Source: Candidatus Portnoybacteria bacterium
Lineage (GTDB): Bacteria > Patescibacteriota > Minisyncoccia > Portnoybacterales > GWB1-42-6
Direction: 5' to 3'
NCBI GenBank assembly: GCA_028688325.1
Contig: JAQTYI010000003.1
Coordinates: 32,116-96,115, forward strand
Length of the DNA: 64,000 nt
The notes under the pieces are model-generated. The model searched no databases. It saw only the letters and a program-made list of their open reading frames with translations, and was not told where the DNA came from. Both the position numbers and the translations under genes were made by a program. Positions 1-48,028 of the stretch are shown here, in pieces (position 1 is the first letter of the stretch; each line of letters begins with the position of its first letter).

Positions 1-365
1 CCGATTATTCCAGTTGGTTCATCGCTTTCCGCTTCTTCCACAAGTTTCGTTAAAAAATCCGACCCAACCGTTGTGTCATTATTCAGCAATAGAACATAAT
101 CCGCGCCTTTTTCCATCGCCAACTTTATTCCTTGATTATTTGCTCCGGCAAAGCCGAGGTTTTTATCGTTCTGTATTTGCGTAATTTTTAGATTCCGGGT
201 CGAGCCCGGAATGACAAAAGGAGACGGCATCAGCTCTTTAGACGCATTATCTATCAACACAACCTCAAAATTATCGTATTCCACCCGGCTCAAAGATTCC
301 AGACACTCTTTTGTGTCCGGCCAGCCATTGAAATTGACGATGATGATAAATACTTTTTTCTTCAT
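1..365 (-). CDS. Glycosyltransferase family 2 (3' part outside window)
   Basis: Manual translation MKKKVFIIIVNFNG...LIDNAS...NLGFAGANNQGI...LLLNNDT, typical GT2 motifs; not in ORF track. Confidence 0.85.
   Translation of the reverse strand, partial: MKKKVFIIIVNFNGWPDTKECLESLSRVEYDNFEVVLIDNASKELMPSPFVIPGSTRNLKITQIQNDKNLGFAGANNQGIKLAMEKGADYVLLLNNDTTVGSDFLTKLVEEAESDEPTGII
191..216. repeat. Palindromic GTCAT-type half repeat inside the GT2 reading frame
   Basis: gattccgggtcgagcccggaatgaca, encodes VIPGSTRN on the minus strand. Confidence 0.8.
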
Positions 366-384
366 GATACCGACTGTCTCTTTC

Positions 385-447
385 TGTCATCCTGAGCGAA
401 GCGAAGGATCTTTAATAGATTTTTCGCCCTACGGGCTCAGAATGACA
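385..447. repeat. TGTCAT...ATGACA palindromic repeat
   Basis: tgtcatcctgagcgaagcgaaggatct...agatttttcgccctacgggctcagaatgaca. Confidence 0.85.
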
Positions 448-457
448 AAATAATAAA

Positions 458-745
458 TCAGTCCTTAAAATCCAATAAATCCTTAAATTCCGGGTTTTTG
501 ATTTTTATCAATTCTATTTTTTTGTTTCTAATCCAACCTTTTATTTTCTTTTCGGCGCATATCGCATCTTCCGGATTATTAAAAACCTCATAAAAAACTA
601 ATTTATTAACTTTATATTTTTTAGTAAATCCCGGCGTTAAACCGTTCTTATGCTCATACATTCTCCTATACAAATTATTTGTGATGCCCGTATATAAAAC
701 AGAGTTTGTATAATTGGTAGCAATGTATATATAATAATTTTTCAT
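458..745 (-). CDS. Small GIY-YIG nuclease family protein
   Basis: YYIYI...LYTGIT..L.RR..EH...AI..EKKIK.W...NP motif pattern; AT-rich. Confidence 0.9.
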   Translation of the reverse strand: MKNYYIYIATNYTNSVLYTGITNNLYRRMYEHKNGLTPGFTKKYKVNKLVFYEVFNNPEDAICAEKKIKGWIRNKKIELIKIKNPEFKDLLDFKD

Positions 746-776
746 AGATTCTTCGGGTTTTGCCCTCAGAATAACA
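746..776. repeat. Half copy of GTCAT-type repeat upstream of GIY-YIG gene
   Basis: agattcttcgggttttgccctcagaataaca resembles 416-447. Confidence 0.7.
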
Positions 777-784
777 CTTCTTTG

Positions 785-3439
785 CTAATACACCCTCCTT
801 ATCTCCGCCCCCAGATAATAATATTTCAGGACCTCCTGATAATTTTTCGCGCCCGTTATGGCAAACCGGCGGCTGCCCGCGGCAGAAAGACCGACGCAGT
901 GATTGCCGCCTCCGCAAATGGACTGCGTATAAGGCGCGCCGATGGGATCCCTCACTCCGCCAGCCAGATATTCAAAACCGGCCTGGCAGAACTGCAAGCC
1001 CCAAATTGAGCAGGCGCTTTTTGTGCCGACCGTATTCAATTCCGGCGCGCCGGAAGAATAAGCCGTAATTATGGGCGAGCCGTTATAAAGCGCCATCTCG
1101 CCCCGCGTGGATTTGACCGCGTCAACCACAGTTGGAGCCGCGGTTTCGCGGACATAACCCTTGTAAAGCTGATCGCTTGAAGTATTATTCAGGATATATA
1201 CTTCGTCCGCTCCGCGCTTGCCGCCTTTCAAAATATAATAATAAGCGTAGGTCCTGGCCGCCACAATCATCGTTTTTTGGTGCTCGACCGGGTCGGTTTG
1301 CGAAATTTCCGCGATGCCCTTAAGATAATCCTCGAGATTCAATTCGTTGACCGCCCAAATCTTATTGGCCTTGGCCGAATAAATTATTTCCACGGCCCCG
1401 CGGAATTGATTGTAATTCAACGACGGCTTCCAGGCCGGATGCTCTTCATAAGAAACGATCGTGACGATTCCGTCGACGGCTTGAGGCGCAATTTTCACAA
1501 AAGCGCCGGAAGCAACAGTAGGAATATTATAGACATAGTTCTCGTTGGCATTCTTTGCCGCGATTATCTGCCCGGATTTATCCAAAATATTATAAGCCGT
1601 GCTGGCGGTTAAAGTAACGCCGGGCGTTAACACCTCATAAATTGCTGCCCTCATCTTGGGTTCGGAGCCGGTTATTGGCACAGGCGTCGACGAAGGACTC
1701 GGCGAAGGGCTAACAGAGGGCGTGGCGCTCGGAGAAGGAGAAGCAAACGGACTCGGGCTGGCGGATGGCGCAAGCAACGGAGACGCCAAAGCCGCTCCGC
1801 GATACAGAACATGGAAATCCTGCGCCGCGATCACCCGAACGCTGGCCCATTTATATTTTTTCTTCTTGAAAGTCGCGCCATCTATCAATATCGGCTGGCC
1901 GCCGGATATCAGATAAACATTATTCTCGTCTTTGGGCCGCAAAAGAGTCCCCTCTTTATATTTTACATAATCGCCCGCCGGATAATAAGCCAGTTCCTCC
2001 GCCGGAATTTTTTTAATCTTTGACCAGCCATATTTCAGATTCAAGAATATTTCCGCGCTGATAAATCGCTTGGGCTTGCCGCCCTCAACCAAATAAACGG
2101 CTTCCTGGTCGGCCGCTTGCAAAAGCGTGCCGTCCGGATACGACAAGACCGCGCCGTCCAGATAATTTTTCAGATCCGCCGGAGCCAATTTCACTTTGGA
2201 CCAGCCATAGCCCAGCGCGACAAACAATGCGCCGGAAGGAACCCAGCGTTTTTTTCCGCCCTGAATGAGAAAAACCCGCCGGCCGTCGCTTAAGAGCTGT
2301 TTGTCGGGCCCGTATTTAACCGCGTCCGCCTCTTGGTATATGTTCAGGTCGGATTCTTCAACAACGCGCACTCTGGCAAAGTCAAAACCCAGTTGTGCAA
2401 ATTGTTTTGCCGTAACATTCAAATTTCTCTTTTTCCCGTCTTGTATCAGATAAATAGTCGGCTCGCCTGTAATTTGCAGGAGTGAGCCGTCCGGATATTT
2501 TAAGAATCTTGATTCGGAAAAAAGATCCAGCTGACTCTGTGAAATCGCGATTGATTTTTGGTAAACTCCGCCCGCGTTAGCATACGACGGCAAGTCATCA
2601 TAAATCTGGCGCGTGCCGCTGAAGATTTTATAAATTTTAGGCAAGCCGTCAACTTGGTAAATATAATTTTTATATTCGGCGGCAAAAGCCGCGGCCTCCC
2701 GGCGAAGACGGCTAAAATCAAGAGACCCGGGATCGGGATTGCCTTTTTCCACATCCTTATGCCCCACGATTATCGGCCCATTGTATAAACTGCTGAATTC
2801 GCTGGTAACCAGATTCCAAATGCTGGAAGAGCGCACACCCTGAGTATCAAGATTATTGGTTTGCGCCAGCCAAGCGACCAGCCGCGCCAAACTTTGGTAA
2901 ACGGCTTCGGGCGGCTGGATCTTGGCGTAATTGCCAAGCAGCGAAATTCCAATAGTGCCGAAATTGAAATTATCATTGGTACGGTCGACAAAAACATGCG
3001 CGGCGCGCGTGCCGTTTCCGCCGTATCGGCCCTCATAGATTCGGCCTTGCTGGTCGATGATATAGTTATAGCCGATATCTCCCCAGCCGCGCGTTACGGC
3101 ATGATACCGATATATCGCCTGAATGGTGGCAACCGGATTGGGGGTATTATTGCAAGTCGGATTTGACGCGTCGCAACCGGTATCATGAACGATTATCCGT
3201 TCCACCGGCTGATAATCGCTGGGTGAAGCGTTTTTATCAGGCATCCAGGTCATCAAAGCATTAAGCGCGGGGGTATTATCCCAAGTTGAACGGGGCAAGA
3301 TCACCGGCACATTGGAATCGCCATAGGTCGGATTTTCATTCTGCGCTTTGGTCAAGGGCGCAAAATAGCCGCCATTGGATAAAATAAGCGAGAAAATAAA
3401 CAGCCAAACTATGTTTTTGGTTAAGAATTTTCGTAACAT
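785..3439 (-). CDS. Secreted N-acetylmuramoyl-L-alanine amidase (PGRP/Amidase_2-like) with internal repeats and a SpoIID/LytB domain
   Basis: Signal peptide; IIVHDT, GWGDIGYN..IYEGR, HKD motifs; YPDG.LL repeats; Ser/Pro linker; LEDYLKGIAE...AARTY...QLYKG...GLS..G...YYY.G. Confidence 0.85.
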   Translation of the reverse strand: MLRKFLTKNIVWLFIFSLILSNGGYFAPLTKAQNENPTYGDSNVPVILPRSTWDNTPALNALMTWMPDKNASPSDYQPVERIIVHDTGCDASNPTCNNTPNPVATIQAIYRYHAVTRGWGDIGYNYIIDQQGRIYEGRYGGNGTRAAHVFVDRTNDNFNFGTIGISLLGNYAKIQPPEAVYQSLARLVAWLAQTNNLDTQGVRSSSIWNLVTSEFSSLYNGPIIVGHKDVEKGNPDPGSLDFSRLRREAAAFAAEYKNYIYQVDGLPKIYKIFSGTRQIYDDLPSYANAGGVYQKSIAISQSQLDLFSESRFLKYPDGSLLQITGEPTIYLIQDGKKRNLNVTAKQFAQLGFDFARVRVVEESDLNIYQEADAVKYGPDKQLLSDGRRVFLIQGGKKRWVPSGALFVALGYGWSKVKLAPADLKNYLDGAVLSYPDGTLLQAADQEAVYLVEGGKPKRFISAEIFLNLKYGWSKIKKIPAEELAYYPAGDYVKYKEGTLLRPKDENNVYLISGGQPILIDGATFKKKKYKWASVRVIAAQDFHVLYRGAALASPLLAPSASPSPFASPSPSATPSVSPSPSPSSTPVPITGSEPKMRAAIYEVLTPGVTLTASTAYNILDKSGQIIAAKNANENYVYNIPTVASGAFVKIAPQAVDGIVTIVSYEEHPAWKPSLNYNQFRGAVEIIYSAKANKIWAVNELNLEDYLKGIAEISQTDPVEHQKTMIVAARTYAYYYILKGGKRGADEVYILNNTSSDQLYKGYVRETAAPTVVDAVKSTRGEMALYNGSPIITAYSSGAPELNTVGTKSACSIWGLQFCQAGFEYLAGGVRDPIGAPYTQSICGGGNHCVGLSAAGSRRFAITGAKNYQEVLKYYYLGAEIRRVY

Positions 3440-3821: not shown

Positions 3822-3913
3822 ATAAAATTTTCCCAGCGCGAAAATTTTACTCGCCAGTTTTGCTCGCTCTCCGCCCAGGACGGAACCGTGCCCGCTCACA
3901 AAACTGAGCGTTT
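3822..3913. repeat. Partial inverted copy of long structured intergenic repeat
   Basis: Reverse complement matches 36137-36240 (aaacgctcagttttg...gagcaaaactggcgagt.aaattttc). Confidence 0.75.
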
Positions 3914-3919
3914 TTAAAA

Positions 3920-5263
3920 TCAATCCCTCGCCTTCTGTTTTAAAACTACTAATTCGGTAAGCTTATAAACATCCCCCGCGCCCATAATCACGCAAATGTC
4001 GCCCGGCTGAAGATTTTTACGCAAATATTCCGCTGCCTCATCAAAATTAGACGCGTAAATAATATTTTCCGATTTACCCTGATCCTGCAGGCGAAGGGCT
4101 AATTTTTCCGAGCTCACTTTTTGCCTGATATCGTCTTTTTCCCTCCCCGTCGCGCTGTAAATCGGTAAAATAATTGTTTTATCTGCCGCGCCGAACGCGC
4201 CGACAAATTGGTCAAAAAAATCGTAAGTGCGCTGGTATTGGTGCGGCTGAAAAACGCACCAGAGTTTCCCTCCCCACTTTGTAAAAGGGGGGTCGGGGGG
4301 GATTTTTTTCAATAGCTCCCGCGCCCCCTCCAGCGTCGCTTTTATTTCTGTCGGATGATGGCCGTAATCATCATAAATTTTGGCGCCATTTAATTCACCT
4401 TTATACTCCATGCGCCGCCAAGCGCCGGTAAATTCATTTAGCGCTTCAACGGCAATTTTTTCATCAATGCCCAAAACTTTCGCCACGGCCAGCGCCGCGT
4501 TGGCATTGGAAACATTATGCTTGCCGGGAATTTTCAGATTCAGTTTTAGCTTATTTTCCGAGCTATATTTTTCAACGCGTAGTTTAAGATCCGCGCTTAT
4601 GAGCTTGGCAACATTTTCGTCTTCGCCATTTACAACTAAGATTCCGTCTTCCGGCAAATGCAAAATATATTCGCCGAAAGTTTCCATGATCTCGGGCAAG
4701 CCGCCTTTATAGGTATCCAGGTGCTCTTCCTCAATATTCAGCAGCACCAAAATCTTCGGCCAATAATTCAAAAACGACTTATCATATTCGTCCGCTTCTA
4801 TCACCAGATACTTACTTGTTCCCGGTCTGAAGTTGCTATTGCCCCACTCTTTGAGTTTCGTGCCCAAGATCACCGTCGGGTCCAGCCCGGCTTTCTCCAT
4901 CATCAAACCGATCATTGCCGTCGTTGTGCTTTTGCCGTGCATGCCGGAAACGGCAATTGTGTATTTTTCACGCGTCAGATCACCCAATGCCGCGGCATAT
5001 TTTTGCGTTTTCACGCCAAGCCGCCTGGCTTCAACCAATTCCGGATTATCCTCTTGCACCGCCGCACTAAATATCACGCAGTCCGACTGCGTGATATTTA
5101 GTGCTTTATGGCCGATGTAAATTTTTACGCCCAACTTTCTCAATTCCGCTACTGTTTCGTTTTTCACCGCGTCCGATCCGCTCACTTCGTCCCCTTGCGC
5201 CAAAAAATACCGCGCCAAGGCGGAAACGCCGATTCCTCCGATACCGATAAAATGAATTCTCAT
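3920..5263 (-). CDS. murC: UDP-N-acetylmuramate--L-alanine ligase
   Basis: IHFIGIGGIG, GMHGKSTTT, EADEYD, DDYGHHPTE, VFQPH. Confidence 0.95.
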   Translation of the reverse strand: MRIHFIGIGGIGVSALARYFLAQGDEVSGSDAVKNETVAELRKLGVKIYIGHKALNITQSDCVIFSAAVQEDNPELVEARRLGVKTQKYAAALGDLTREKYTIAVSGMHGKSTTTAMIGLMMEKAGLDPTVILGTKLKEWGNSNFRPGTSKYLVIEADEYDKSFLNYWPKILVLLNIEEEHLDTYKGGLPEIMETFGEYILHLPEDGILVVNGEDENVAKLISADLKLRVEKYSSENKLKLNLKIPGKHNVSNANAALAVAKVLGIDEKIAVEALNEFTGAWRRMEYKGELNGAKIYDDYGHHPTEIKATLEGARELLKKIPPDPPFTKWGGKLWCVFQPHQYQRTYDFFDQFVGAFGAADKTIILPIYSATGREKDDIRQKVSSEKLALRLQDQGKSENIIYASNFDEAAEYLRKNLQPGDICVIMGAGDVYKLTELVVLKQKARD

Positions 5264-5985
5264 AAAAATTTTTCCTTAATAATCAACCAAGAAAAAACTA
5301 CCACCGACCGCCAGGTTTTGCGCCATTGGCTGGGTTGAACAAATAACCGCCAGAGCCACTCCAGCCCTATTTTTTGTACCATTTTTGGCGCGCGGCGCTT
5401 TCGGCCGGAAATGAAATCAAATGTCCCGCCGACGCCGATGGCGACTTTCACGACTGGCATTTTCTTAAGATTATCATAAATCCACTTTTCTTGCTTTGGC
5501 ATTCCCAGAGCGACCAGCAAAATGGCCGCTCCGCTGCGATTGATAGCGCTTATCGCCTCTTCATCGGCGACATACCCGTTTATCGTGCCGGCAATTTTCG
5601 CCTGCGGCACTTTTTGCAAAATATTTTTTACCGCCCCTTGCGCCACCCCTTCTTTGGCGCCGAATAAAAATATGCCATGTTGCGCGCCAAATTTTGCAAA
5701 AAGCGCAAAAACCAGGTCCACGCCCATCACTCTGCTCTTCAATTTCTCGCCGCCTGAAATATAAGACGCGATTACCGGCCCGACACCGTCAGATAAGCTT
5801 AAATCCGCTTTATTTAAAATTTCTTTTAATTTTTCGTCCTTTTGCGCCTGGACCAGAAAATCAGAATACGGTAAAACGATATGATGCTGCCGACCGTCGG
5901 ACAAAAATCCGCTTATCTTTTTCAGCGATTCCCCAAGATTCAGATTGTCTATTTTTACGCCAAGTAAATACAATCCAGTGGTCAT
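5260..5985 (-). CDS. WecB/TagA/CpsF family glycosyltransferase
   Basis: LSDGVG, RVMGVDL, LGMPKQEKW, GVGGTFDF, GLEWLWRL. Confidence 0.9.
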   Translation of the reverse strand: MTTGLYLLGVKIDNLNLGESLKKISGFLSDGRQHHIVLPYSDFLVQAQKDEKLKEILNKADLSLSDGVGPVIASYISGGEKLKSRVMGVDLVFALFAKFGAQHGIFLFGAKEGVAQGAVKNILQKVPQAKIAGTINGYVADEEAISAINRSGAAILLVALGMPKQEKWIYDNLKKMPVVKVAIGVGGTFDFISGRKRRAPKMVQKIGLEWLWRLFVQPSQWRKTWRSVVVFSWLIIKEKFL

Positions 5986-6071
5986 CCTGAGGCCGCAGGC
6001 CGAAGGATCTGAAAGATTCTTCGCTTCCCCCTTCGCTAAAGCTTCGGGGGGACAAGTCGCTCAGAATGACA
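5981..6071. repeat. GTCAT...ATGAC repeat with a nested second palindrome
   Basis: gtcatcctgagg...gctcagaatgaca containing cccccttcgctaaagcttcggggg. Confidence 0.8.
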
Positions 6072-6680: not shown

Positions 6681-6852
6681 CGTGCATACGGAAAATTTTA
6701 ATTAGACCGGGAGCGAGGATTTACTTTTCTGAAACGCTCAGTTTTGCTTGCTTTCTCTGTTCGCCGCGGCGAACAGAGAAAGCAAGCAAAACTGCGTGAG
6801 TGAAATTTTCTACGCTGGGGAAAATTTCACGATTTCAGGAAGCAAATCCGAG
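6681..6852. repeat. Long structured intergenic repeat
   Basis: Collinear with 36090-36261 (gcatacg...gagcgaggatttactt..ctgaaacgctcagttttgc...tccgag). Confidence 0.8.
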
Positions 6853-6903: not shown

Positions 6904-8958
6904 ATGCGCCTTTTTGATATCATACCGCTCGCCAGAATTCCCGCCGCCTTGCCTCAAGTTTTGAGCTATTTTTCCGGCCAAAATCTACCAAACGGCGCTT
7001 TGGTCCAAATCCCTTTAGGTAGAAGAAAAGAAGAAGGCGTTGTTGTGGGCGCGCATGACATTGCCGATTACAAAATGGAAATAAAAAGCGCGGATTTTGA
7101 ATTGCGCAATATCAGCAAAATACTTTCGGCAAAACCCGTCTTAACGGCTAAACAAATTGAACTGGCTTTATTTCTGGGCCAATATTATTTTTGCTCACCG
7201 GGAATTTTTATCAAAATGTGTTTGCCGCCAAAAAACACCCTTATTCGTCATTCTGAGCGAAGCGAAGAATCTCTCGCGAATGCGAGGCCCAAAAAACAAA
7301 CCTTAATTCTCGCCCCAACAATAGCCCAAGCTGAAAAAATCTCCACTGGCTATAAAAACGCGGTTTTATGGCACAGCGGCCTTAAAAACAAGCAATTAAA
7401 AGAATCCTGGCAAAAAATTAAAACCGGCCAAGTGCAAACAATAATCGGCACTCGCTCAGCCGTTTTTTTGCCTTTTAACGGCCTGAAAGAAATTATCATT
7501 GAAGACGAGACAAACCCCAACCATAAGTCCTGGGATATGTTTCCTCATTATGACAGCCATATAATCGCGCAGAAGCTGGCGGAAATTTTTAGATGCAAAG
7601 TAATCTATAAAGATTTCGGTCATCCTGAACGAAGTGAGGGATCTAAAAAAGATTCTTCGGCTAATAAATCTCACGCAGTCAGAGTGCGTGAATTCAAACC
7701 GACTATTGTTGATATGAGAGAGGAACTTAAAGACGGAAATTTTTCCATTTTCAGCGTTGATCTTTACGAAGCCGCCAAAGACGCTTTGGCCGAAAATAAG
7801 CAAGTTATCTTATTCATAAACCGTCGCGGCGCGGCGAATTTCGTTCTGTGCCGCGACTGCGGTTATGTCGCCAACTGCCCAAATTGCGATTCCCCGATGG
7901 CATATCATCTGATAAACAATAGGCCTTCTTTATTTTGCCATCATTGCGGCGCCAAAGATATCCTTCCTAAACTTTGCCCCAAGTGCAAAAACTGGCGCAT
8001 CAAAACCGTGGGCTCTGGCTCCCAAAAAGTTGAAGCGGAAACAAAAAAATTCTTTCCGGACGCCAAAATTTCGCGCCTGGACAGCGACAGCGCGCCAAAG
8101 CCCAAAGACCAGCAAAAAATCATTGCTGATTTTATTGATAAGAAAATCGATGTCTTGATAACCACCCAGATAATTTTTTCCTGGCTGGAAGAACTGGCCG
8201 CGGCAAAACCGCAAGTTGTGGGAATATTATCAGCCGACACGCTTTTGCATCTGCCTGATTTCCGTTCGGGCGAACAGACATTTCAGACAATACGAGCATT
8301 ACAATCTTTACAAAATAACGCCCCCCGACCCGCAGCAGCGGGTCTTCCCCCTCTTAAATTAAGAGGGGGCGAGGGGGAGTTATCACAAAACAATTTCATC
8401 ATCCAAACCTACAACCCGGAAAATTCCGTCTTAAAATATATCCGCGATAATGACCGCAAGGGTTTTATCCAAGAAGAAAATGAAACCCGCCAGGCGTTGA
8501 ATTACCCGCCATTCTCGCAAATCGTTAAGCTAACCTTCCGACATCGTGATGCCGACAAAGCCGGGCAAGAAGCAAAAATTTTAGCGGCTAAACTAAATAA
8601 TGCTCTGCCCTCCCTTTCTGTCATTCCCGCCCCGCATCAAGTGCGGGGTAAACTGGAGACGGGAATCCAGGCCCTGACTCTTGAATCTGGATCCCGGGTC
8701 AAGCCCGGGATGACAAATAACAAGTACGCTGATAACATAGAAATATCCACCGCCCTGCCCGCCTTCAATCCGCGCTCGCGCGGAAAATTCGTTTGGAATA
8801 TAATAATAAAATTTCTTTCGGCTGCGGCTCCCTCCTTTTCCAAAGGAGGGTTGGGGAGGATTTTTACTACCTCCGAATTCCTTCAAAAAAGAAACTCTGT
8901 CTTGCAATATGTCCCGCAAAATTGGGAAATAGATGTAGATCCTGAAAATCTATTATGA
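6904..8958 (+). CDS. priA: Primosomal protein N' (helicase motifs degenerate, repeat-derived inserts)
   Basis: GTRSAVFLP, FINRRG, four CxxC pairs, PDFRSGE, YPPF, IDVDP. Confidence 0.9.
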   Translation: MRLFDIIPLARIPAALPQVLSYFSGQNLPNGALVQIPLGRRKEEGVVVGAHDIADYKMEIKSADFELRNISKILSAKPVLTAKQIELALFLGQYYFCSPGIFIKMCLPPKNTLIRHSERSEESLANARPKKQTLILAPTIAQAEKISTGYKNAVLWHSGLKNKQLKESWQKIKTGQVQTIIGTRSAVFLPFNGLKEIIIEDETNPNHKSWDMFPHYDSHIIAQKLAEIFRCKVIYKDFGHPERSEGSKKDSSANKSHAVRVREFKPTIVDMREELKDGNFSIFSVDLYEAAKDALAENKQVILFINRRGAANFVLCRDCGYVANCPNCDSPMAYHLINNRPSLFCHHCGAKDILPKLCPKCKNWRIKTVGSGSQKVEAETKKFFPDAKISRLDSDSAPKPKDQQKIIADFIDKKIDVLITTQIIFSWLEELAAAKPQVVGILSADTLLHLPDFRSGEQTFQTIRALQSLQNNAPRPAAAGLPPLKLRGGEGELSQNNFIIQTYNPENSVLKYIRDNDRKGFIQEENETRQALNYPPFSQIVKLTFRHRDADKAGQEAKILAAKLNNALPSLSVIPAPHQVRGKLETGIQALTLESGSRVKPGMTNNKYADNIEISTALPAFNPRSRGKFVWNIIIKFLSAAAPSFSKGGLGRIFTTSEFLQKRNSVLQYVPQNWEIDVDPENLL
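8619..8715. repeat. 97-bp GTCAT...ATGAC element inside priA
   Basis: About 7 mismatches to the intergenic copy at 12823-12919. Confidence 0.9.
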
Positions 8959-9923: not shown

Positions 9924-10030
9924 TGTCATTCCCGCCCCCGCTTCGCGAGGATAAACTTCAGCGGGAATCCAGGACTTTATCGTACCGAATTTATTCAGGA
10001 CCTGGATCCCGGGTCAAGCCCGGGATGACA
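9924..10030. repeat. GTCAT...ATGAC element
   Basis: Ends in ctggatcccgggtcaagcccgggatgaca, as do the copies at 8619 and 12823. Confidence 0.85.
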
Positions 10031-12792: not shown

Positions 12793-12984
12793 CCGCGCAT
12801 ACGAAAAACTTTACACCTTCTTTGTCATTTCCGCCCCACATCAAGTGCGGGGTAAACTGGAGACGGGAATCTAGGCCTTAACCCCTGAATCTGGATCCCG
12901 GGTCAAGCCCGGGATGACAACTGGTGTTGTCAATTTTATCGTCGGGCGCAGTTTTTGCGCCACTTTTTGCTGCCAAAAAGTGGC
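12793..12984. repeat. Long structured repeat with nested 97-bp GTCAT element (12823-12919)
   Basis: Ends match the copies at 17855 and 32249 (cgcgcatacgaaaaa / aattttatcgtc.g.gcg...ccaaaaag). Confidence 0.8.
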
Positions 12985-14132: not shown

Positions 14133-14260
14133 TAATAACCAATCACCAAGATACAAGATACAAACAAATTGCAATAATCAAATTTAAAAAGTTCAAACCG
14201 GTTTGATTATTGAATTTTGGGATTTGAAATTTGTTTGGTTATTGTATCTTGGTTATTGTC
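14133..14260. repeat. Inverted heptamer-period array
   Basis: aataaccaatcaccaagatacaagatacaa... mirrored by ttggttattgtatcttggttattg. Confidence 0.75.
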
Positions 14261-14262
14261 TC

Positions 14263-15084
14263 TTATATCTCTAAAATTTCCCTTTCCGCCGCCACTTTAT
14301 TTATTTTAACCACTCCGCTCCACAACAGCGCTCGGAATACCAGCCAGGCAAAAAGCATCATCGCCCAGGAAAGAAAAGTGCCGATAACCTTAAGGCCGAA
14401 AAATATGCTGACTGAAGCCCCCAACGGCAACCATTTTTTAGACGACCGGCCGGCTGCGCTTATTTCTTCATTCATTGAAAAATATATCTTATCTAAAACC
14501 TCCGCTTTTTGTTTTTTAAACTCCGGAGTCGGTTTTAAATCTGTCTTTTGCGGCGAACTTATACCCAAGGCCAGATCGGCTGCCGGACCGGCAATAGCAT
14601 CGAACAAAGGCCGGGGCACAGAAATATTGCCTCCCAGCGACTGGGTGAATGGCGTAAAATAAAAAAGCAAGGTAACGAGCAACGCCAGGCCCGTGATCAT
14701 CGGCGCCAGGCCTTTTCGGAGAATTATCCCGGAAATGAACTTTATCCGCAGTGTCTTTTCAAAATGGCTGCGATAAGCCGCCAGAATAAAAAATATTATC
14801 GCGCCGGCCAGCACGAGCATAGTTGCCAAGCCCGGTTTCAAAAAAACCAAAACCGGCAAGATTATCGCCGCCGGCATGCCGTATAAAAACAGCTCGTCGC
14901 TTTCAACAAGGAAAAATAATCCCGCGCAAATTCCCAAAGCCATCAAAAAAACCAAAGACCAAATTGATCTTACTATCCAATCGGGGCTGTCGCTTAACGC
15001 GTTCGTCAATGTCGCCCAAAATAAAAACGAAAAAACCAGGATTAAAACTCCCAACGCCGAATGTACGATAATTTTCTTGTTCAC
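14263..15084 (-). CDS. Hypothetical multi-pass membrane protein
   Basis: Long hydrophobic ORF between dnaK and dnaJ; start uncertain (15084 or 15102). Confidence 0.7.
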   Translation of the reverse strand: MNKKIIVHSALGVLILVFSFLFWATLTNALSDSPDWIVRSIWSLVFLMALGICAGLFFLVESDELFLYGMPAAIILPVLVFLKPGLATMLVLAGAIIFFILAAYRSHFEKTLRIKFISGIILRKGLAPMITGLALLVTLLFYFTPFTQSLGGNISVPRPLFDAIAGPAADLALGISSPQKTDLKPTPEFKKQKAEVLDKIYFSMNEEISAAGRSSKKWLPLGASVSIFFGLKVIGTFLSWAMMLFAWLVFRALLWSGVVKINKVAAEREILEI

Positions 15085-17107: not shown

Positions 17108-17228
17108 AAAAATCCAAATTACCAAATCCCAATGACCAATCAATGACCAAGCCCTAAATCCCAAAAATTCATTTTGACATTGGGATTTGGGATTTTATTG
17201 GTCATTGGAAATTTGACATTTGATATTT
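17108..17228. repeat. Inverted heptamer-period array
   Basis: aaatcccaatgaccaa...ttgacattgggatttgggatttt; homologous to the arrays at 20886 and 25034. Confidence 0.8.
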
Positions 17229-17245
17229 ATTTATATTTTTTAAAT

Positions 17246-18785: not shown

Positions 18786-18842
18786 TGTCGTCCTGAGCTT
18801 GTTTCAGGACCTTAGAGATGCCGAAACAAGTTCGGCATGACA
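18786..18842. repeat. GTC...ATGAC repeat in the hrcA leader
   Basis: tgtcgtcctgagcttgtttcagga...tgccgaaacaagttcggcatgaca. Confidence 0.75.
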
Positions 18843-20882: not shown

Positions 20883-20885
20883 AAA

Positions 20886-20965
20886 GGACAAATGACAAAA
20901 TCCCAATGACCAAGCCCAAAATCACAAATAATCCCTTTTGACATTTGGATTTGGGATTTTTTTGA
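20886..20965. repeat. Inverted heptamer-period array
   Basis: aaatgacaaaatcccaatgaccaagcccaaaatc...tttgacatttggatttgggatttt. Confidence 0.75.
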
Positions 20966-23242: not shown

Positions 23243-23451
23243 TTCTCCTCCTGGCAATGTTAGTTGGCCTCAAAAGAACTTGATAAATTCCGCCCCTTTC
23301 TGCGATAAGAAGATTCTATTCCGAAAAACAAATAAATGCAAGGCCTCTTTTTCAACTTTTACTCCCCACGAAATCCACTTTTTGCCGCAAAACGGCGTAT
23401 TGCCAAGTATCAATGCGATGATATACTGTAATAACGCCAGACCGCTGCGCT

Positions 23452-23598
23452 AAATGTCTAAATCCTAATGCCTAATGACAAATGAAAAGCTTAATGCCCA
23501 ATTTCCAATCATTGAGGAATTGGTCATTTCATTAGACATTAGTCATTAGAGATTGGTCATTAAGTACAAATTCTTCGGCCTGCGGGGTCAGAATGACA
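23452..23598. repeat. Inverted heptamer array followed by GTCAT half repeat
   Basis: aaatgtctaaatcctaatgcctaatgac...ttagacattagtcattag; ttcttcggcctgcggggtcagaatgaca. Confidence 0.7.
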
Positions 23599-24973: not shown

Positions 24974-25033
24974 CAATTTTGACCAGCTGATAATTATGTT
25001 GCTATTTTGAATGAGGTTAAGAATCTATTTATT

Positions 25034-25152
25034 TAATGACAAATGACAAAATCCCAATGACCAATAAATGTCCAAGCCCAAAATCCTAAAAGATTTTTTG
25101 ACATTAGGATTTGGGATTTTATTTGACATTGGAAATTAGAAATTTGTCATTT
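25034..25152. repeat. Inverted heptamer-period array
   Basis: Collinear with 17108-17228. Confidence 0.8.
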
Positions 25153-25163
25153 AAATAACCTTA

Positions 25164-28852: not shown

Positions 28853-28881
28853 TGTCATCCCGAACTTGTTTCGGGATGACA
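28853..28881. repeat. Minimal TGTCAT...ATGACA palindrome
   Basis: tgtcatcccgaacttgtttcgggatgaca. Confidence 0.8.
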
Positions 28882-31445: not shown

Positions 31446-32237
31446 TTAACACTTTTTCTTATAGATTAACAGCAACAGAGAAATAGAGAAAATTACTACT
31501 GCTATCCACTGGCTCACGCTCAAAATCCCCCAGCGAGGGTCGGCTAGGGGGCCGGAGGAAACGCGAATGAATTCAAGGAAAAAACGGATGGCGGAATAAG
31601 AAATTAGGAATAATAAAAAGAATAGACCATCTGTCATCGTGAGCCCCGCAGGGGCGTGGCGATCCCGCGATACTGCCGCGTCCACGGAATTGCTTCGTTC
31701 CGCTCGCAATGACATATTTTTTATTTTTTTCTGTAAAAACCAAAACACTGCCAACAACCCGAACCCGACCAGCGATTCATATATCCCCATCGGATGGCGC
31801 GAAATGCCGTCCGGCCATAAAATTCCCCAGGGTAAATTTGTCGGCGCGCCCTGGTGGTCGTTGATTAAAATACAGCCGATGCGGCCAATGCCAATTCCCA
31901 GCGCCATCGGTAGAACAAACAAATCGGCTGTTTTCCAAAAAGGTATTTTGGCCTTTTCCATATACGCCCACCCAAACAATATCGCGCCGATCAATCCACC
32001 CATAAAAGCGGCTCCGCCGCCCGCGGTTAACCGCGCCAGAACCCACGCGCCCGATATTGCGCCAAAAAAAATCGCGACGGCCAGGCCCGCGATTTTTTTT
32101 GGCGCCAGATTTTCTTTCCGGGCCAAGTAATAAAACAATAGATATCCAACGCTAAACCCCAGCCCCGCGAACAAACCCCAGATATAAAGCTTTACGGGAC
32201 CAAGAGAGATTTGATTAATAACAAAATACGGTATCAT
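31446..32237 (-). CDS. lgt: Prolipoprotein diacylglyceryl transferase family
   Basis: FMGGLIG, GIGRIGC, LPWG, RHP..IYE, Y..IRFF.EF.R. Confidence 0.85.
   Translation of the reverse strand: MIPYFVINQISLGPVKLYIWGLFAGLGFSVGYLLFYYLARKENLAPKKIAGLAVAIFFGAISGAWVLARLTAGGGAAFMGGLIGAILFGWAYMEKAKIPFWKTADLFVLPMALGIGIGRIGCILINDHQGAPTNLPWGILWPDGISRHPMGIYESLVGFGLLAVFWFLQKKIKNMSLRAERSNSVDAAVSRDRHAPAGLTMTDGLFFLLFLISYSAIRFFLEFIRVSSGPLADPRWGILSVSQWIAVVIFSISLLLLIYKKKC
31632..31714. repeat. TGTCAT...ATGACA element in frame in lgt
   Basis: Encodes MSLRAERSNSVDAAVSRDRHAPAGLTMT between TM helices. Confidence 0.8.
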
Positions 32238-36093: not shown

Positions 36094-36261
36094 ACGATTA
36101 TTCTGATTAGACCGAGAGCGAGGATTTACTTTCCTGAAACGCTCAGTTTTGCAAGCGGGCACGGTGTCCCGACTTTATGGAGGGACGAGCGAGCAAAACT
36201 GGCGAGTGAAATTTTCCTGGCTGGGGAAAATTTTACGATTTCAGAAAGTAAGTCCGAGCGA
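36090..36261. repeat. Long structured repeat; its end contains the murF ATG
   Basis: Collinear with 6681-6852. Confidence 0.8.
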
Positions 36262-40552: not shown

Positions 40553-41155
40553 TTACACGAATTTCAGCCGGTTCAATAATTTCTCGTGCGGTTTTTCCAG
40601 AATGTCGCGCACGAAACGGTCGAACATATGAAAACGATAATCGAATTCTTTGGTTTCCATCGCCGCATACTCTATCTCCTTGCCGACTTCCGCTTCCATA
40701 TCCGCCAAAAAATTCATCAGTTTTTTATGGGAGATATCGTCGCCGACCAAAAATAAATCTACCCGGCTGTTGTCGCTATTTAAAAATACGCCGCCGACAA
40801 GCGCCATCTTTATCCGGCCTATTTTCATTAAACGCTTCAACATTTTTACCTTGGAAGTCGGACTGGATTTTAAAACCAAACTTTGGAGCTCCGGATAGAA
40901 ATCGAACTTGGGGTTCACATTATAATACAAGCCGCCGATTATTCCTTTTTTTCGGTTGGTTTTTATTTTTTTGGCAGCCAACAAACCGATGCTTTCCAGC
41001 CCACTCACATGCTTAACGACCGCGTTCCGGCGCTCCTGAGTTTTTTTAATGATATTCTGCATCAAAAACTGCCTGTCCGGGTTGCGCAAAAACAGCTTAA
41101 GCAGTTTTACTTTTATCGGCGAGTCGAACAATTGCTCAAGTATTCGTTCTGACAT
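40553..41155 (-). CDS. wHTH protein with degenerate nucleotidyltransferase-like C-domain
   Basis: LF.S...KLL.LFL.NP, ..GVF......VDLFLVGD; start reassigned to MSER. Confidence 0.65.
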   Translation of the reverse strand: MSERILEQLFDSPIKVKLLKLFLRNPDRQFLMQNIIKKTQERRNAVVKHVSGLESIGLLAAKKIKTNRKKGIIGGLYYNVNPKFDFYPELQSLVLKSSPTSKVKMLKRLMKIGRIKMALVGGVFLNSDNSRVDLFLVGDDISHKKLMNFLADMEAEVGKEIEYAAMETKEFDYRFHMFDRFVRDILEKPHEKLLNRLKFV

Positions 41156-41156
41156 A

Positions 41157-41283
41157 CCAGGTAGTAGAAATTCGGCTGTCATATTCAAAAAATATTAAAT
41201 ACAACAGAAGCAATCTCTATTTTTATACTTTTTTGATTGCCAAATAATGAAGTAAATCCAACCGCCGAATTTTCACTACCTGG
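41157..41283. mobile_element. MITE-like element with CATA target duplication
   Basis: CATA-ccaggtagtagaaattcggc...gccgaattttcactacctgg-CATA. Confidence 0.75.
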
Positions 41284-41421
41284 CATATTAAAAAAGAGGT
41301 CTCCCTCCATACCCTGTCAATTATTATATATACTCAAAGATTAGTATTTTTTGACGATTGTGTCCAGCCCCGAACAAGCTACCCTTACCTTCGGCTTTTT
41401 GATATAATATATTTATATCTT

Positions 41422-43241: not shown

Positions 43242-43371
43242 CCAGGTAGTAGAAATTCGGCTATATTCATAAATCCCAATGGACTTACTTAACTTTGCCA
43301 AACTCTATGGTTTTATCAAGTTTTACCAGCCAACGACAATTCGGTTAAATCGCCGAATTTTCACTACCTGG
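43242..43371. mobile_element. MITE-like element with CATA target duplication
   Basis: TIRs identical to 41157-41283, unrelated interior. Confidence 0.75.
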
Positions 43372-43495
43372 CATATATTTTTAATAAAAAACGCCTCTTC
43401 AGGCGCATTAACGATAAGCCATTCGTCGTTTATCCCGAACTTGCTCGCCTCGCTGAAGCTTTAGCGAAGCGGGTCAAGGGACGATCAGCTACCTT

Positions 43496-47962: not shown

Positions 47963-48028
47963 TTATTTATTATAAATAAAAAATATTGTCATCCCGCACT
48001 TGACCCGGAATGACAATTCATTGATATT

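Follow-up and report, generated by a model that had tools for sequence, protein, structure and literature searches.

The question raised by this locus is whether a small nuclease can be the enzymatic partner of the short hairpin repeats that surround its gene and recur throughout the genome. REP and REPIN repeats, which carry a GTAG tag, are paired with RAYT, a tyrosine transposase of the HUH type, and a preliminary description of the locus proposed that a GIY-YIG protein plays a comparable role here, nicking and spreading palindromic repeats of the form GTCAT...ATGAC. The window analysed is a stretch of 64,000 nucleotides (C5:32116-96115) of a 911-kb genome in eight contigs (label G000). It contains, on the reverse strand at 458..745, the AT-rich gene of a 95-aa protein with a GC content of 27%, compared to 46% in the window; 8 of the 835 called genes of the genome have a GC content of 28% or less.

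The protein consists of one domain, GIY-YIG (PF01541, E=4e-17), and its named homologues are mostly from Patescibacteria. Residues Y7, Y18, R28, H32, E65 and N84 are present and their columns are invariant or near-invariant among 90 aligned homologues; Y7, Y18 and E65, which align with the catalytic Y6, Y17 and E64 of the Neisseria nuclease SsnA, are invariant in all 90. For blastp we used the N. gonorrhoeae SsnA orthologue (L292, 94 aa) as a stand-in for N. meningitidis CAX49033; it was identified through the primer context in Chenal et al. (2025; PMC11893778) and its NTS flanks. This query matched the 95-aa protein with 40% identity over 85 of 94 aa (E=2.8e-20), inside the blastp limits of the Ssn family (E<1e-10, at least 75% query cover), whereas the nine other small GIY-YIG proteins of the genome gave E values of 3e-7 or higher. 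The size limit of the family, a single GIY-YIG domain in fewer than 150 aa, also includes the protein. In a midpoint-rooted tree (95 columns; 30 of 76 Ssn-like rows sampled) it lies with the SsnA orthologue on the same side of a 100/99 split of 33 versus 23 rows, apart from other small GIY-YIG proteins. NCBIfam returned no match for the protein. The fold model (pLDDT 91) has three strands plus helices; the closest solved structure is 1zg2 of UPF0213 (sequence E 5e-6, Foldseek E 5e-5), Slx1 structures reach TM-scores of 0.50-0.63, and sequence and Foldseek structure searches found no solved Ssn structure. On the basis of the Pfam domain, blastp, the invariant columns and the tree, the assignment of the protein to the Ssn nuclease family is well supported.

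The building block of the repeat is a single oriented unit, (T)GTCAT followed by a hairpin and RATCY, and the GTCAT...ATGAC element is two such units head to head; the base preceding GTCA is T in 86% of units. Three regular expressions written from this genome counted 112 units at 80 sites, compared to 0-3 per dinucleotide shuffle (10 shuffles). They comprise 50 units of type A with a perfect stem, 60 of type B with a bulged or interrupted stem (CTGAG..GAAGRATCT), and two of type C, whose stem is also interrupted. A single pattern, GTCATYCN{10,30}GRATCY, gave 113 matches in the genome and 0 with the reversed control; it replaced an earlier relaxed pattern that was too noisy (106 matches versus 31-42 in shuffles). 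By simple ORF calls, 37 of the 112 units are located within ORFs of 150 aa or more. The idea that the repeats are a usual source of start codons was dropped, as 6/112 units hold the first ATG of an ORF, several of these with a more plausible later Met. A MITE or an insertion sequence with target-site duplication was likewise rejected: at the 57 unit pairs listed, no short direct repeats occurred in excess over shuffles (offsets 0-3, lengths 2-5; 16 tests, lowest p 0.06).

The nuclease gene is touched by type B units only. Ten nucleotides after its stop codon begins an inverted pair, the first half of which is unit 1 (417..447, reverse strand) and the second half unit 2 (385..411, forward strand), which points back at the gene and forms the outer end of the cassette; the full repeat previously recorded at 385-447 is thus present, but as two type B units and not as one palindromic repeat. 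The region 380-452 around this pair folds at z -4.0/-4.7. On the other side, a unit at 746..776 (reverse strand) points at and abuts the ATG; it had been regarded as half a palindrome but is a whole type B unit with its GTCAT tag mutated to GTTAT, and the orthologous unit in the relative G151 keeps GTCAT. The upstream host gene encodes an Amidase_2/SpoIID cell-wall protein (785..3439, reverse strand; 884 aa; PF01510, PF08486). The downstream host gene encodes a GT2 glycosyltransferase (308 aa; PF00535), the 5' part of which (1..365, reverse strand) is in the window before the gene runs off it. A single type A unit (190..216, reverse strand), listed as a copy at 191, is inserted in frame in this gene and is not part of the cassette; relatives have other inserts in the same loop.

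The dozen related copies reported for the window all start with GTCRT or end with ATRAC where they had been placed (12/12), but they belong to types A, B and C and do not form one family. Besides the units at 385 and 746, type B includes a gene-less pair at 5981 (5981..6070), the ATGAC end of which holds the first ATG of a WecG/TagA ORF, two units in frame in priA at 7246 and 7618 (7247..7272 and 7619..7644, both on the forward strand) and, by inspection, a degenerate single unit at 23571 (23567..23597, reverse strand). Type A includes, in addition to the unit at 191, pairs at 8619 (8620..8714, in frame in priA), 9924 (9925..10029), 12823 (12824..12918) and 18786 (18787..18841, with the AACTTGTTT loop), the last three intergenic, and, by inspection, two short fused palindromes with both outer tags at 28853 (28854..28880, 27 nt) and 47987 (47988..48014). 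The copy at 31632 is an 81-nt type C pair in frame in lgt (31633..31713). The gene priA (6904-8958) has at least five PriA loops that hold in-frame repeat-derived peptides; in three relatives these loops are occupied by repeats of other families, and in G010 by none.

A comparison of homologous loci revealed that the association of enzyme and unit is both specific and oriented. Of 137 loci, 134 had a match and 130 yielded a protein of 60 aa or more, which were reduced to 110 at 90% identity. The loci scored were 76 Ssn-like ones and 27 with other small GIY-YIG genes; 7 were left out because they were own copies, had short flanks or gave intermediate scores. With GTCATYCN{10,30}GRATCY, a pattern built from this genome's units and written after earlier results were known, inward units within 130 nt on both sides were found at 25/76 Ssn-like loci, 0/27 other GIY-YIG loci and 0/827 host genes, and any unit within 130 nt at 47/76, 0/27 and 66/827, respectively. 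Thus, the flank enrichment that the preliminary description had put forward as a check is strong, and it is directional: at Ssn-like loci, 34 upstream units point inward versus 12 outward, and 33 downstream units inward versus 8 outward. UPF0213 and Slx1 have the same fold as the Ssn-family protein, but the other small GIY-YIG genes are without unit flanks (0/27). The nuclease gene at 458-745 itself fails the both-sides pattern, because its upstream tag is mutated. A broader tag, which was adjusted to the flanks and is therefore circular for the positives, placed inward units on both sides at 49/76, 0/27 and 2/827 loci. Of the 56 loci with typed units, 46 have one and the same unit type upstream and downstream (18.4 on average and at most 29 in shuffles), and unit types cluster on the protein tree, which is itself poorly resolved (21 changes versus 48 shuffled). 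Because kin share labels, this match between enzyme subgroup and unit type shows pairing and is not proof of co-evolution.

The link also holds between genomes. In a survey of 150 genomes of the class, 25 had a match at E<=1e-12 and 17 at E<=1e-20, and these 17 were counted as Ssn-like. Genomes with the gene have a median of 21 units and those without it 2; at least 10 units were found in 13/17 genomes with the gene versus 8/133 without (Fisher p 2e-10, overstated by kinship), so genomes with the gene are indeed repeat-rich, although four Ssn-positive genomes have fewer than 10 units. The lack of the gene in repeat-rich relatives had been named as evidence against a partnership, and such relatives exist in part. 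Eight of the 21 repeat-rich class genomes had no Ssn-like match at E 0.01, only distant GIY-YIG proteins (26-42% identity) or none; one of the class relatives, G098 (99% complete, 90 contigs), has 341 units in dense arrays and no Ssn-like candidate. Among 25 order-level relatives, the gene is present in 10, with 8-191 units, and 6 of the 15 gene-negative relatives have 16-104 units. Gene and repeats are strongly but not obligatorily linked; loss of the gene once the repeats had expanded, or repeat-flanked genes that remained unassembled, could each explain the repeat-rich genomes without the gene.

A genome may have as many as five Ssn genes at unrelated sites, some of them broken, and in order-level relatives the cassettes are found between many different gene pairs. 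In G000, a second, intact copy (C5:11536-11814) is 66% identical, with type B pairs on both sides and a 40-nt direct repeat. A frameshifted copy with type A flanks (C3:56315-56591) has an apparently intact counterpart at that site in G159, and this frameshifted gene is the only partner of the genome's 50 type A units.

Is the system new? Chenal et al. (2025; PMC11893778) described Ssn as single-domain proteins (cd10448) flanked by SRM hairpins, which rules out a categorically new system; the partnership of enzyme and repeat proposed for this locus is supported by both the flank and the genome tests, but it is the Ssn/SRM system already published. These authors reported that four Ssn members each cut their own units in vitro, that they cut only single-stranded DNA, in a sequence- and orientation-specific manner 5' of the hairpin unit, and that SsnA reduces transformation by DNA that carries NTS, the one function of the family demonstrated in vivo. 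The word nicking is therefore not apt, as the other members cut single-stranded DNA a few bases 5' of the unit and do not nick duplex DNA. The analogy to REP/RAYT was also raised there, as a hypothesis, and mobilisation was left hypothetical as well. Shared with that system are the single GIY-YIG domain of about 95 aa with equivalents of Y6, Y17 and E64, oriented GTCAT-stem-RATC units, the unit-gene-unit layout and dozens to hundreds of genomic copies. The present locus differs in that the flanking units are of the bulged type B, in that a third of the units are intragenic here versus 2% in N. meningitidis (PMC11893778), and in its host, whose Patescibacteria-like genome of 0.9 Mb has several type-matched Ssn copies. 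The published SRM pattern has 35 matches in the genome (shuffled mean 1.7); it fits 31/50 type A units exactly, but 0/60 type B units match it without substitutions. None lies within 500 bp of the nuclease gene, whose flanking units depart from the pattern by 2, 3 and more than 3 substitutions. Since the SRM pattern was found at 71% of homologues (PMC11893778), its absence reflects a repeat variant and does not exclude an Ssn protein; across loci, an exact SRM within 500 bp was present at 12/76 Ssn-like, 0/27 other GIY-YIG and 44/827 host genes. No bulged unit is among the assayed substrates in the oligonucleotide list of that paper, and 13 of its 14 supplementary files gave 0 matches to the names Patescibacteria, Parcubacteria, Saccharibacteria and CPR, with 286 'Candidatus' rows present. 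Our search of the mostly open-access literature found no paper that deals with Ssn mobilisation or reports Ssn from Patescibacteria. Both the pairing of enzyme and repeat and its comparison to RAYT are already published; in the literature searched we found no bulged units, no Ssn subgroups with matching unit types, no comparison of filled and empty sites, and no host among Patescibacteria.

The units also have the features of the CGTC-tagged REP superfamily (CGTC-1 to -4), which includes dRS3 of Neisseria and RPE-4 and RPE-6 of Rickettsia (Di Nocera et al. 2013; PMC3733652): a terminal unpaired YGTC tag, a short stem-loop, a tail, inverted dimers and intragenic in-frame copies. Families 1-4 have stems of 8-9 bp and loops of 4-5 nt; many type A units have such a perfect stem and loop, but the type B units at the nuclease gene do not, and the stem is interrupted in types B and C. 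The accessible text of that study ties no transposase or dedicated enzyme to CGTC repeats. The locus resembles REP/RAYT in that one enzyme gene is flanked by a genome-filling repeat, in family-specific pairs of enzyme and repeat and, by analogy to other Ssn members, in a single-stranded hairpin substrate that would be cut near a terminal tag. However, the flanked enzyme is a hydrolytic GIY-YIG nuclease, not an HUH (Y1) enzyme, and the tag is YGTC, not GTAG. No strand-transfer chemistry is known for this enzyme.

Seventeen loci of relatives were compared at the 3' end of the amidase gene, one of which is on a contig that ends too early. The same cassette fills the orthologous site in G000, in one of the 17 (G151) and in a metagenome locus (L017). 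In G155 and G010 the two host genes abut without a cassette, separated by 2 and 0 nt. In G152 the site is occupied by a DUF559 gene flanked by inverted hairpins of a different kind, and the remaining relatives have other repeats or another ORF; the cassette is absent in two of three same-genus relatives. The nuclease gene is under strong purifying selection (pN 0.09-0.12, pS 0.71, dN/dS about 0.04-0.06). The downstream pair differs from its G151 orthologue at 2/63 bases, while synonymous sites differ at 71%; because the pair is closer to this orthologue than to any paralogue in G000 (the best about 90%), its conservation points to selection on the units in place. Recent horizontal homing into the site is not readable, as synonymous sites are near saturation in the nuclease and both neighbours, and for the same reason gain and loss cannot be ordered here. 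In contigs of four DNA runs, no cassette-skipping joint occurred among the 15 of 57 joints shown; the alignment of one related-strain contig breaks off at 801, with 55 letters that do not align. The cassette copy at 458-745 looks old and settled.

We consider it probable that this is an Ssn-family nuclease between inward hairpin units which cuts single-stranded DNA outside type B units, and that cutting together with host recombination seeds gene-less pairs across the genome. The family of the protein, the unit-gene-unit layout, its clade specificity, the matching unit types on both sides, the many unrelated sites and the filled versus empty sites are observed in the genomes compared here, whereas cutting of single-stranded DNA only, oriented and 5' of the unit, would be carried over from the four Ssn members assayed (PMC11893778). 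The units may expose hairpins on single-stranded DNA, either on the lagging strand or on DNA taken up via ComEC/DprA, and the 95-aa enzyme is predicted, by analogy to those members, to cut the DNA beside the bulged type B unit, 5' of the tag. With the spacing known from Neisseria, cuts would be expected near 380/381 on the forward strand and near 451/452 and 780/781 on the reverse strand, so that the outer cuts would bracket the cassette on opposite strands; poor cutting is predicted for the upstream unit (746-776), owing to the mutated C in its GTC tag. A hydrolytic GIY-YIG enzyme forms no covalent protein-DNA link. Rejoining must for this reason come from host enzymes, unlike in RAYT. Host repair or recombination might then insert units or pairs elsewhere, where they are tolerated in spacers and protein loops, and cutting and repair might also reshuffle gene-less unit pairs. 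Comparison of the relatives' sites and of target duplications gave no direct sign of movement of units or cassette. More tentatively, Ssn cassettes could be the autonomous members of transposase-free mobile elements, each Ssn subgroup excising and spreading its own hairpin type through host repair, while unrelated tiny nucleases of the genome (DUF559 and other small GIY-YIG clades) would run parallel families that compete for permissive sites in Patescibacteria.

Rather unlikely, and compatible with cassette spreading rather than exclusive of it, is that the host keeps the enzyme in order to tune recombination by cleaving transforming single-stranded DNA at the units, the units being spread by other means such as gene conversion. 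That is the one role demonstrated in vivo for the family, by SsnA of Neisseria (PMC11893778); comEC and dprA are present in the genome, which makes a role against incoming DNA possible, Patescibacteria have been described as naturally competent (PMC12455944), and gene and flanking pair are strongly constrained at an old shared site. However, the gene is patchy (17/150 class genomes) and missing from the cassette site in two of three same-genus relatives, its copies, up to five per genome, are scattered over unrelated sites and some are broken, and a host function leaves unexplained why each gene is surrounded by its own inward units.

It is improbable that another enzyme, either a transposase of HUH/RAYT type or one of a host system, mobilises the units, with the nuclease gene as cargo captured once between two of them. 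Repeat-rich genomes without the gene and two genes of the Y1/HUH transposase family in G000 would be in line with such a passenger, as would the permissive cassette site, where relatives have a DUF559 cassette or other repeats. Yet both Y1 genes are without flanking units, the nearest unit being 1.2 and 6.5 kb away, and PMC3733652, in its accessible parts, reports no transposase for CGTC repeats, which makes an HUH mobiliser less likely; moreover, the unit type tracks the Ssn subgroup, and four Ssn members cut their own units in vitro (PMC11893778). Still less credible is a role at the RNA level, in which the hairpins are translational attenuators, terminators or mRNA-stability elements for a toxic nuclease and not a DNA substrate: one unit abuts the ATG, the pair follows the stop codon and is far more conserved than synonymous sites, and REPs are often discussed as RNA elements (PMC3733652), but 37/112 units lie inside long ORFs, SsnA binds and cuts the DNA unit and does not bind RNA (PMC11893778), and units on opposite strands at the two ends are more in keeping with DNA ends than with a single transcript.

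Several other nuclease genes and repeats of G000 were recorded in the same survey. Three DUF559 nuclease genes (C3:269071-269385, C3:323250-323441 and C3:387160-387477) are each enclosed by CCCCC..GGGGG hairpin units in inverted orientation. These units form a second repeat family, which has many copies without a gene and to which L155 belongs too; the DUF559 cassette that occupies the Ssn cassette site in G152 is of this kind. In the window, family D1 of this type is found at 4271, 8347, 8829, 17499, 18917, 25817 and 34001. The small GIY-YIG gene L002 (C3:338557-338820) is bracketed by inverted CCAGGTAGT..AAATTCG arms, and arms of this type without a gene occur in the window at 41147-41293 and 43342-43375 (families D18 and I22). 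Five small GIY-YIG genes outside the Ssn family adjoin tRNA genes: L011 (C3:184014-184262), L008 and L010 (C7:28075-28733), L009 (C3:177270-177524) and L007 (C3:417975-418229). One of the five is located between a 38-nt copy of the 5' part of tRNA-Glu and the intact tRNA, two are in tandem around tRNA-Ser with duplications of 14-17 nt, and one is between 18-nt inverted repeats beside tRNA-Pro, which looks like tRNA-targeted insertion. AT-rich palindromes of CAAAT/ATTTG heptad-like units are located at 14133-14265, 17110-17229, 20884-20964, 23451-23560 and 25032-25154, and related long hairpins, another repeat type with 29-30 nt arms at 93-97% plus one perfect 56-nt palindrome, at 3840-3913, 36137-36216 and 6739-6794.

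What spreads CGTC-type REP repeats has been an open question since 2013, and mobilisation was only a hypothesis in the Ssn paper of 2025. The locus does not settle how the repeats spread. It is, however, clean material for a test, with a cassette of 396 nt, empty sites at orthologous positions, types of enzyme and repeat that go together, and pairs that lack a gene. The published SRM motif undercounts the partners of the family, as it is found at 12/76 homologues, whereas the broader tag derived from these data matches 72/76. With the bulged type B unit, a family that has been proposed as 'restriction enzymes' for single-stranded DNA would gain a new recognition sequence.
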